Shown here in pieces: positions 38,524 to 45,731 of a DNA stretch of 64,000 bases (positions are counted from its first letter, which is position 1; each line of letters opens with the position of its first letter). This DNA is from an uncultured Chlamydiae bacterium (GTDB lineage: Bacteria; Chlamydiota; Chlamydiia; Chlamydiales; SM23-39): NCBI GenBank assembly GCA_963730605.1, contig CAVSSM010000009.1:64001-128000 (forward strand), in the 5' to 3' direction. The notes under the pieces are model-generated. The model searched no databases. It was not told where the DNA came from and saw only the letters and a program-made list of their open reading frames with translations. A program made the position numbers and the translations under genes.

Positions 38524-41270
38524 GACGTACATACGAGCGTTGTCCCCTTCCGGCGCCAGCGCTCGATGGCTGCCGGCGCAATCGATGGGCAATCTTTTAG
38601 AAAGATTTTTTGTAATGGAAGATCGAGAAGCGCGTCAAGCGTTCGGCTTGACACCCTTGGACATGATGTGAGACAAAGAGAGCGCAGTTCTCGATTTTTG
38701 AGGACAATCAGGCATTCATCAGTAATTTCGGGGCAGTTTTCAAGTGTGATGTACTTCAGATAAATATTTTTAGCCAGCAAATCAAGAAAAGCGCCTGGCT
38801 TCAGCAACATTGCATTTTCAAGAAATATTACAGTAATCGGTGGAAGGGCCTCAGCCAGCCGATTCCAATCGCTTTGGGAAAAATTCTCGCCATTCAGTCC
38901 AAGGTCAGTTAGGCACCCAAGTTTTTGTAGCCAACAAATCGTCGACGATGGATTCAAAGATTTGCACTGCAGCAGGTTGAGCAGCCTGAGGTGAGGCGAG
39001 GGGGCATCAATGGAGGCCGTCAGTTCATCCAATCCGCGCAGGTTGATCTCTTCCAGCTGCGAGCAAGAATGGATCAATCGATTGACCCCCTTATCTGAAA
39101 CAAGGAGGCAGTGAGAAAGATCGACTCGCGAAAGACGAGGCCAAAAAATCGAATAACGATTGATAAATTCATCATTTACAAATACCCGATGTGATAAATT
39201 CAACGTTCTAATTCGAGTTCCCTTTTCTTGTAACTCTGCCAAAAGAGTTTCTGACAGAGATTCTTTCTCGGAAAAGTCGAGATGAAGGGGGGGGTAAGTG
39301 AGGCTATACCGCTCGTGATTGAAAAATCGGTTTTGGTGCGGCGCCTCACCCCAAAAACGATGCGTTTCTGGGGACCCCGGTGGCGGCGTCGGCTTTGACT
39401 CAGATTTTTCATCTTCGCTTCCGAGGCGATTCGCTGCGCTCATCTGCTCTGCACTGCGAAGGTCCACTGGACCTTCTCGTGTTTCCGCAGCCTTGCCTTT
39501 GGCAAGGTCCCTCGCTCCAGCTGAAAAATCTGAGGAGCCAATTCCCGTTTTTTCAATCACTCCAGGTATGCGCCGTGGAGCGAATGATTTTGTTGCATAG
39601 AGAGAGTTCAAGGCTCTGAGTTTGGATAAGATTTTTTCTTCTAACCCTAGCTTTAAGTCAGGTTGAAAGAGGCGCAAATCTTCCTTTTCCTCGGGATCGT
39701 TTTCTAAGTGGTAGAGTTCTTGCTTTCCTGATGTTCGATTGAGGATGCATTTCCAGGGGCCGACTCTTACTGCCGCAAAAGATTCTTGAAAGGGGTGTAG
39801 GAAAAAATGGGGATTGCTTCTCTCTTTCAGCAAAAGGGATTCCCCCATTCCATGGTGGGTGGATCCAATGTTGAGAAGATCGAGCAGCGTCGGGAGCAGA
39901 TCGACTTGCGAGCAAGGCTCTGGACAAGTGAGAGTTTTTTTGAGTTTCCCTTTGGCCAAGAGAAGCAAAGGGACATGAATGTTTTCCTGATAAAGGTGAC
40001 GATTGACCAGAGATTTTTCGCCTCGCTCCCCTAATTCTTGCCCATGGTCTCCGAAGATAAAAATAAGGCTTTTTTCCATAAGGCCTGATTTTTCAAGAGC
40101 CTTGAGCCACTGGCCGAGTGCCCAGTCCGCATATGAGAAGGTTTGGAAGTAGGGATGATCGTCCACTTTCCCTTTCCAGGAATTCGGAAGCAGCCACGGG
40201 TGATGGCAGGTCGCTGTGAGAAGGGTTAAAAAAGCAGGGTTTTTCCGGTTCCCTAGCCAAGTAAGAGCTTTTTTGTAGATCCACTCATCATGCACACCCC
40301 AGCTCATCGATTCCGCATCCGGAAATGTTGTGATCAGGTCGCTTTTGCTAATAATTTCCTGGAAATCGTTCATCTCAAAGAAGCGCTCCCAGGATTGGAA
40401 CGACCCCGGTCCCCCAAGAATCATTCCATTTTCATAACCTTGCTCTCGGAGAATTTGCGGGATTCCCCTTAGAGGGAGGTTTAAGTACGAGCGTAAATAC
40501 GAGGGATGAAACATAGGAAGGATCCCAAATAGAGAGGAGATCATGGCCGATGAAGTCAATAACCCATTCGAGTGGAATTGAGAAAATAAAATTCCCTCTT
40601 TCGACCATTTGTCAAATGATGGCGAAAGGCCCAAAGAGCCTCCCAAGGCCCCTATGTTTTTTGCACGGAAGGATTCTAGGAAAAGAAAAATGACATGAGG
40701 CCGCTCTCCTGCCTCCATCTCTAAGGTAAACCGGCGGTTTTCTTCGGAAGTGGGGCCACGAAAACGAAAAGTTGGGGAGGCTCGTTGAGAGGGAGATCGA
40801 AATCGAAAGGCTCGAACCAGGTCCGATTCCCAGAGAAAAAAGACATTGGAGCGCTCTTCGCTTGAGCAGGTTACGCAGAAAGGAGCAAGGCCGAGCCCAC
40901 TGAGGAAGAAGACCTCTGGAAGGGCAGGAAAGGTCGCTCTTGGGAGAAAGTGCCCTAAGAAGCAACCCAAAATAGAGCACGTAAGAAATAGTCCCATTTT
41001 CCCCCAAGAAGCTGACATCCGAAACGTGGCAAGCTCAAGAACGTGGGAAAAAAAAGCCGGGCGGAGCCGCACTCCAGCGATTTGAAAAAGGAAACGGTCC
41101 GCTAAAGAGAAAATGATCAGAAAATCGAAAAAAAGGGGCTGGAGGGAAATGGGGAGAAGAGAAAAGATGAGAGCGCATTGGCAGGAAATGCCCAGATCTT
41201 CAATCCATGAAGATTTGCGAAAGAGCCGGAAGAGAAAAAATATCCCGAAAATCGACAGAAGAATCTTTAC
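38520..41270 (-). CDS. Membrane-anchored LtaS/sulfatase-family protein with C-terminal LRRs and an 88-aa in-frame repeat insert; true start probably upstream of 41072
   Basis: LESF, T nucleophile (GLLTS), HHPW, GDHG, HVPL, SQVDLLPT and ELYHLENDP; LRRs (LNLSH, VDLSHC, LENCPEIT, LTSCPRVS); frame open to 41306. Confidence 0.82.
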   Translation of the reverse strand, partial: VKILLSIFGIFFLFRLFRKSSWIEDLGISCQCALIFSLLPISLQPLFFDFLIIFSLADRFLFQIAGVRLRPAFFSHVLELATFRMSASWGKMGLFLTCSILGCFLGHFLPRATFPALPEVFFLSGLGLAPFCVTCSSEERSNVFFLWESDLVRAFRFRSPSQRASPTFRFRGPTSEENRRFTLEMEAGERPHVIFLFLESFRAKNIGALGGSLGLSPSFDKWSKEGILFSQFHSNGLLTSSAMISSLFGILPMFHPSYLRSYLNLPLRGIPQILREQGYENGMILGGPGSFQSWERFFEMNDFQEIISKSDLITTFPDAESMSWGVHDEWIYKKALTWLGNRKNPAFLTLLTATCHHPWLLPNSWKGKVDDHPYFQTFSYADWALGQWLKALEKSGLMEKSLIFIFGDHGQELGERGEKSLVNRHLYQENIHVPLLLLAKGKLKKTLTCPEPCSQVDLLPTLLDLLNIGSTHHGMGESLLLKERSNPHFFLHPFQESFAAVRVGPWKCILNRTSGKQELYHLENDPEEKEDLRLFQPDLKLGLEEKILSKLRALNSLYATKSFAPRRIPGVIEKTGIGSSDFSAGARDLAKGKAAETREGPVDLRSAEQMSAANRLGSEDEKSESKPTPPPGSPETHRFWGEAPHQNRFFNHERYSLTYPPLHLDFSEKESLSETLLAELQEKGTRIRTLNLSHRVFVNDEFINRYSIFWPRLSRVDLSHCLLVSDKGVNRLIHSCSQLEEINLRGLDELTASIDAPSPHLRLLNLLQCKSLNPSSTICWLQKLGCLTDLGLNGENFSQSDWNRLAEALPPITVIFLENAMLLKPGAFLDLLAKNIYLKYITLENCPEITDECLIVLKNRELRSLCLTSCPRVSSRTLDALLDLPLQKIFLKDCPSIAPAAIERWRRKGTTLVCTS
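39306..39569 (-). repeat. Palindromic repeat element, family A, in-frame coding copy (264 bp, 88 aa)
   Basis: TIRs ATACCnnnnGTGATTGAAAAA / TTTTTCAATCACnnnnGGTAT; 250/264 nt identical to 43227-43490 by manual alignment. Confidence 0.95.

Positions 41271-45731: not shown

Follow-up and report, generated by a model that had tools for sequence, protein, structure and literature searches.

A MITE found in frame in unrelated genes of an uncultured Chlamydiae bacterium

Two copies in the window and their target sites

Two genes in the stretch of 64,000 nt analysed here (the window) encode unrelated proteins that share a closely similar segment of 88 residues, which raises the question of how one sequence came to lie in frame in both and what it does to them. 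The preliminary description of this DNA had taken the shared sequence to be a palindromic element of 264 bp, inserted into a secretin gene and a sulfatase gene. The features of the window are as follows.

43167..45731, plus strand: GspD-like secretin of 854 aa; the insert forms residues 21–108, directly after the N-terminal hydrophobic helix
43226..43227, plus strand: left TA target copy of the gspD insert, spanning codons 20/21 of GspD; a single TA at the empty site of the related genome G003
43228..43489, plus strand: MITE of family A in gspD, 262-nt form, right terminal bases mutated
43490..43491, plus strand: right TA target copy of the gspD insert
38520..41072, minus strand: sulfatase-like protein of 850 aa; the insert forms residues 502–589, with the sulfatase region before it and an LRR-like C-terminal part after it
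39305..39306, minus strand: TA target copy on the 3' side of the sulfatase-gene insert
39307..39568, minus strand: MITE of family A in the sulfatase-like gene, 262-nt form
39569..39570, minus strand: 5' target copy of the sulfatase-gene insert, now CA by a synonymous change from a presumed TA
52662..53012, plus strand: intergenic element of family B, with the terminal repeats of family A and a different interior
19638..19936, strand unassigned: TA-flanked element of another family, with different ends and with inner modules in common with family A

The two 264-nt segments (39569–39306 on the minus strand and 43227–43490 on the plus strand) differ at 14 nucleotides and at 8 of the 88 residues, and within the window they form a 261-nt inverted pair of 95% identity. 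As had been claimed, both are read in the same frame and leave their hosts intact: the 850-aa ORF is open and matches Pfam Sulfatase, and the 854-aa ORF is open and matches Pfam Secretin. The palindromic nature was also borne out. The RNA fold of the gspD copy has a z score of −4.7, with 0 of 200 shuffles equally stable; in the sulfatase copy the terminal inverted repeats pair at 80% over 25 nt; and the inner inverted repeat lies at 39399/39522 and, with a single mismatch, at 43262/43385 in the gspD copy. The length has to be restated: 264 nt is the net gain, whereas the element proper is the 262 nt between two TA target copies. The LRR domain ascribed to the sulfatase-like protein was not recovered, as no Pfam LRR family matched at E ≤ 0.001, and its C-terminal part is thus LRR-like by eye only. 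The elements at 52.7 and 19.6 kb had been called related copies, which holds in part: the former has the terminal repeats and one 45-nt module in common with family A but another interior, and the latter has only inner modules in common and differs at its ends. Rfam returned two tRNAs in the window and no intron family or other match, and no sigma-70-like promoter site was found within 43100–43600. Neither an intein nor a self-splicing intron was recognized, the peptide being without a Pfam match and the window without a group I or II family of Rfam.

The same-genus genome G003, in which GspD has 95% identity, provides the empty site: where this genome reads TA, 262 nt and TA in gspD, G003 has a single TA. 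It also has a single TA at the site of a further insert, in a transporter gene (see below). The reciprocal case is a copy of 315 nt in G003, which lies antisense close to the 3' end of what we take to be uvrC; the corresponding site in this genome is an empty TA. Filled and empty alleles thus occur in both directions, and the element has therefore been mobile in both lineages after their split. Compared with relatives, the net gains are 264 nt in the sulfatase gene, 219 nt in a wzc-like gene and 315 nt each in the transporter gene and recD2. The TA duplication is seen directly at the gspD and transporter sites and is deduced for the sulfatase, wzc-like and recD2 sites, where the relatives have diverged.

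A clean gap in homologs and a definable target site had been expected of a true insertion. Both were found: all 13 aligned GspD homologs are without the segment, and the target is a duplicated TA that is present as a single copy at the empty gspD and transporter sites and at the reciprocal G003 site. A closer relative has one contig without the gspD insert, a net loss of 264 nt (single contig, depth 4.5). Members of the three best Atlas clusters for GspD are mostly Chlamydiota, the most likely phylum of this organism. RecD2 aligns in two pieces flanking its insert in 38 of 40 family genomes, and the other two gave no match. At dnaX the element is absent from G003, but a run of N adjoins the site; the rlmK-like gene has no close ortholog in five genomes (best identity 30–37%). 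Together with six more in-frame copies elsewhere in the genome, the empty sites and the homolog gaps uphold the claim of a mobile repeat that adds a peptide at tolerant positions.

Copies, hosts and peptide

A genome-wide scan for the terminal repeats found 22 end-paired elements, 13 with the interior of family A and nine with that of family B. Counting three truncated copies, family A comprises 16 copies, which measure 112–316 nt when complete and encode no transposase. Eight of these are in frame in genes, all in the sense orientation and in one phase, and add up to 105 aa. The hosts of complete in-frame copies are gspD, the sulfatase-like gene, recD2 and genes for an rlmK-like methylase, a TLC/MFS nucleotide-transporter-like protein and a wzc-like protein; truncated copies lie in frame in dnaX and in the gene for a 436-aa hypothetical protein (C1:448.9 kb). 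The rlmK-like insert follows codon 2 and the transporter insert follows codon 3. In these copies the TA lies across a codon boundary, and the frame so entered is the only one of the six without a stop. Element plus TA measures 219, 264 or 315 nt, always a multiple of three. Of the other eight copies, six are complete and lie between genes, one is truncated and not in frame, and the one at the start of rlmM has a broken reading frame. This last copy (G000:C7:123654-123963; L026) is two bases short at its left end and has an extra base inside; it may now supply the rlmM start, since the database protein (P0002) begins within the element. A frameshift relative to G002 is present in the ATPase domain of dnaX (G000:C2 ~90,200; L083), upstream of the truncated insert, and may be an assembly error.

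An open frame combined with a length of 3n is found in six of the seven complete in-gene copies, with rlmM counted as in-gene, versus one of the six intergenic copies (Fisher, p = 0.03; the gene calls behind these classes are crude). By our test none of the nine family B copies is in frame within a gene body, although two reach into the end or start region of a gene. One family B element (G000:C1:317548-318080) contains the 45-nt module in a tandem run and is situated in a 310-codon open frame. The inner hairpin modules also occur alone, some in tandem, in frame in long ORFs without terminal repeats (G000:C2:62436, C1:697553, C1:625914 and C3:9346).

The inserts are located at N-termini, in linkers or at a hairpin tip. 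Disorder-promoting residues, by our own residue list, make up 73% of the peptide; its frame has balanced charge (16 R/K and 15 D/E) and is less hydrophobic than any of the other five. In the model of GspD, which is poor overall (mean pLDDT 51), the insert forms a coil that links the N-terminal hydrophobic helix to the first helix of the body. The host fold is confident in the model of RecD2 (mean 78), which has the insert looped out between two strands at the tip of a β-hairpin; the relatives of RecD2 already vary in length at that turn. The low pLDDT of the insert is partly expected, as no alignment row covers it. The insert is probably a disordered, floppy 88-residue loop and may be translated and retained in the protein.

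Among changes private to single copies, the six in-gene copies have 20 non-synonymous, seven synonymous and no stops, and the six others (five intergenic plus the rlmM copy) have 23 non-synonymous, six synonymous and two stops. The dN/dS ratio among copies gives the peptide an ω of 0.9–1.2 with a wide interval of 0.4–3.2, reflecting low power; with ω near 1 there is no sign that the peptide sequence matters. Comparison of the host genes with relatives gives ω values of 0.07–0.22, the sulfatase and wzc-like genes lying at ∼0.22. The hosts are thus under purifying selection while the peptide drifts about neutrally. The earlier proposal that the element generates new protein sequence at tolerant linkers is accordingly right as to the positions, but the new sequence itself looks neutral and has no signal of selection.

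A second family with related ends, family K, behaves similarly, in this and in other genera. It has seven complete copies in this genome, all of length 3n. One is in the E1 domain of a dehydrogenase, where five of five genomes show a clean 54-aa gap. Four more are in frame: one at the N-terminus of FolC, one each at the C-terminus of a cytidylyltransferase and of a YbbR-like protein, and one in a hypothetical protein. The remaining two are in a 388-aa frame of uncertain reality and a 124-aa frame. As the insert in the hypothetical protein is also present in the G003 ortholog, this in-frame insert has persisted since the split from G003. A third family adds ∼64 aa to the linker of the E2 protein. 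Family K was found in 25 of 102 family genomes, and about six of ten loci inspected are in long frames, among them a second site in what we take to be a FolC-like gene, the hosts of these loci being named by recognition; in G102 (34 matches) and G063 (21 matches) most are in short frames, a pattern that fits a burst of insertion followed by intergenic loss and in-gene trapping. Two family K copies (G000:C1:727325 and C1:713771) have a common left flank, which suggests that a duplicated segment carried the element along.

The range of family A proper is narrow: the genome scan found two loci, the family search three of 102 other genomes and the metagenome scan with the peptide none. Among 1.84 billion representatives the peptide had only five relatives. 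Family A-like peptides are in frame near the N-termini in G007 and P0005. At L135 (G006:C19) the in-frame insert is a related MITE in reverse orientation, and we take its host gene to encode a TruA-like pseudouridine synthase.

Candidate mover and competing explanations

The genome contains 14 copies of an IS630 element of 1,121 nt, encoding a 347-aa DDE transposase that scores 218 bits against NCBIfam IS630 (NF033545; cut-off 100). Nine of the proteins are identical (100%) and five are at 99%, all 14 copies are TA-flanked and 14 of the unpaired ends from the terminal-repeat scan belong to this element. Its left end and the right end of the MITE agree in 20 of 21 nt, and agreement between the other ends is lower. 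The interiors have no similarity beyond chance, so that the MITE is not recognizable as a deletion derivative; its interior consists of hairpin modules common to several families. Related IS630s are present in 24 of the 60 family genomes searched, and in two of the three compared (G054 and G066) the ends resemble both MITE ends over ∼30 nt. Leaving out a copy at a contig end, two of 13 IS630 sites interrupt long ORFs midway, and this enzyme therefore does enter genes. On the strength of the end match and the shared target, the resident IS630 is the likely mover of the MITE, by an argument of the same kind as that from which the pairing of RUP with IS630-Spn1 is inferred. The true mover may instead be a related IS630, unassembled or lost, since the interiors are unlike and the other IS end matches less well. 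The repeat had been described as recently active. Very recent activity belongs to the partner IS630, whereas the two focal copies have aged: terminal bases are gone from the gspD copy, and one target base from the sulfatase copy.

We consider it highly probable that family A is a non-autonomous MITE, moved by IS630 and tolerated as a neutral loop in the host proteins. The course that we infer, as regards the mover, translation and retention, disorder and trapping, would be as follows. The IS630 transposase would move the MITE in trans, with insertion at a TA that is duplicated. A sense insertion at a TA straddling a codon boundary would add 73–105 residues and remove none, because element plus TA is 3n and one frame is free of stops. 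At an N-terminus, linker or surface turn the host would still fold, with the insert hanging out as a disordered loop; the gene would survive, and the copy would then be trapped, since changes that break the frame would not be tolerated. The peptide itself would have no function. The broken rlmM copy and the dnaX frameshift speak against this reading.

Other readings of the same data can be set against this. That a repeat was misassembled into two genes is extremely improbable: each copy has private substitutions, the net lengths equal element plus target when compared with independent genomes, and G003 contains a full copy. Among the short contig pieces listed (four DNA runs) none bridges a filled junction with 31 letters on each side, which would favour misassembly, but one contig covers the sulfatase junction with 155 flank and ten element letters without a difference (this run may be the source sample). 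Removal or skipping of the insert after transcription, by hairpin-guided excision or ribosome bypassing, would leave normal proteins and could draw on the pairing of the terminal repeats, which brings the ends together in a stable fold. We regard it as very unlikely, since in-gene copies keep frame and length and intergenic copies mostly do not; all in-frame copies also have one orientation and phase, and the Rfam and Pfam searches described above found no intron family in the window and no match for the peptide. Only slightly less unlikely is the view that the hosts are dying amid a bloom of transposons and that the open frames are short-lived. The 481 repeat regions covering ∼200 kb speak for it, as do the broken rlmM copy, the frameshifted dnaX and the ω of ∼0.22 of the sulfatase and wzc-like genes. 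Against it, GspD has 43 non-synonymous differences over both branches versus ∼51 expected on this branch alone if dead since insertion, and five hosts have no stops where ∼8 would be expected; these expectations date the insertion by private differences, so that the age would come out too high if donor copies were unsampled or hairpins mutable. The family K insert common to the G003 ortholog also argues against dying hosts, as does RecD2, for which a search of this genome at E ≤ 1e-60 gave just one match.

It is conceivable, although we are inclined to doubt it, that the MITE lineage has itself been selected for harmlessness at the protein level, as a TA-free and stop-free sequence of 3n modules that encodes a charge-balanced disordered linker. 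Such selection would widen the safe landing ground in a gene-dense genome, a benefit that we likewise hold to be rather improbable; if true, the element would have an intein-like lifestyle inside working genes without catalysis or splicing. The near-absence of TA points this way (observed/expected 0.05 in eight family A copies versus 0.57 in the genome and 0.20–0.96 in 19 other families), but may merely block self-insertion. The module lengths (45, 51 and 72 nt) are multiples of three throughout, as are those of the complete family K copies, but family B, whose ends are those of family A, mostly departs from 3n. Balanced charge and the lowest hydrophobicity among the six frames also favour the idea, but having an open frame is unsurprising, as 52% of dinucleotide-preserving shuffles also have one, and the peptide shows no purifying signal. 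Of the 15 copies that could be placed, eight are in-frame copies within genes, versus 24–39% of usable TA sites that are in-phase coding (p = 0.014–0.18), an excess that reaches significance with the higher estimate of intergenic sites but not otherwise, and the predominance of short frames in G102 and G063 looks as if in-gene copies simply outlast intergenic ones. Tolerance of an IS630-moved MITE remains the reading that we prefer.

Comparison with known repeats and other repeats of the genome

The Rickettsia palindromic elements (RPEs), reportedly described by Ogata et al. in 2000 and 2002, resemble family A: both are hairpin repeats of an intracellular host, found between genes and in frame in unrelated conserved genes, with a recurring and apparently neutral peptide. 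The likeness is one of way of working, judged from the descriptions. According to the passages cited, RPEs are in-frame coding repeats in Rickettsia (PMC10969869, PMC2229807, PMC3733652) of 105–146 bp, with the target duplication marked ‘?’ in Table 1, and Gmk with an RPE stays active (PMC2229807). The elements here differ in a net gain of 219–315 nt (73–105 aa), about twice the size of an RPE, in a TA duplication that is seen and in a resident candidate transposase.

RUP of Streptococcus pneumoniae is described in the cited part of PMC2229807 as a 107-bp, intergenic repeat with stops in all six frames. Like family A it is a TA-target MITE with ends that match a resident IS630, IS630-Spn1; it differs in being shorter, in its stops and, as far as that passage goes, in its purely intergenic location. 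The Correia/NEMIS repeats of Neisseria are TA-flanked and have size classes, of which an open-frame class (107-bp NEMIS) fuses in frame to genes and a stop class is intergenic, comparable to families A and B (PMC2229807, in the passage cited); they are shorter, and no IHF site or promoter is shown for the elements here. Repeat frames fused to or inside protein genes are likewise reported, in the sections cited, for the BRE of Bordetella, for ERIC/RU fusions and for the QMITEs of Coxiella (PMC3184786, PMC5896051): BREs are internal in about nine genes, with no mover named there (PMC3184786), and where QMITEs overlap named genes they do so at the 3' end (PMC5896051). Judging by these passages, in-frame MITE fusions as such are already established from RPEs, BRE, NEMIS and ERIC. 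What this case adds is a candidate transposase, an exact target duplication and longer inserts.

Family A has the terminal inverted repeats, the target duplication and the short, multi-copy form without a transposase of bacterial MITEs; the end matching a resident IS630 and the TA target place it with the IS630-dependent ones, and its one frame, in frame in unrelated conserved genes, makes it RPE-like. The literature searched, with thin coverage of subscription papers, held no description of chlamydial MITEs or of their in-frame insertions. A MITE census names no chlamydial MITEs in its main text, but may list them in its supplements (PMC11602168); the cited part of PMC13229535 covers IS elements only.

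RPE-type palindromes are, in the passages cited, without a demonstrated target duplication or mover. Here a single genome brings together the repeat, its TA duplication, alleles with and without the insert in either direction and an intact IS630 that has spread recently and matches at one end, and the mechanism is therefore testable in Escherichia coli. If the MITEs have indeed been selected for harmlessness in proteins, which we think rather unlikely, the resident IS630 would amount to a natural system for in-frame linker insertion, in which the spread of RPE-type repeats could be modelled and tested. The inserts mark tolerant sites in RecD2, the secretin and dehydrogenase E1 and E2, and will mislead the annotation and phylogenies of environmental chlamydiae.

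The whole genome contains at least 20 short inverted-repeat families among its 481 repeat regions, and several abundant ones (45, 30 and 21 matches) gave no in-frame candidate. Two further types of DDE_3 transposase have six and nine matches (G000:C1:429562, C1:18178 and others). Long repetitive regions with up to 36-fold self-similarity are located at G000:C10:54203-60775, C10:66062-83769 and C11:1-15838.
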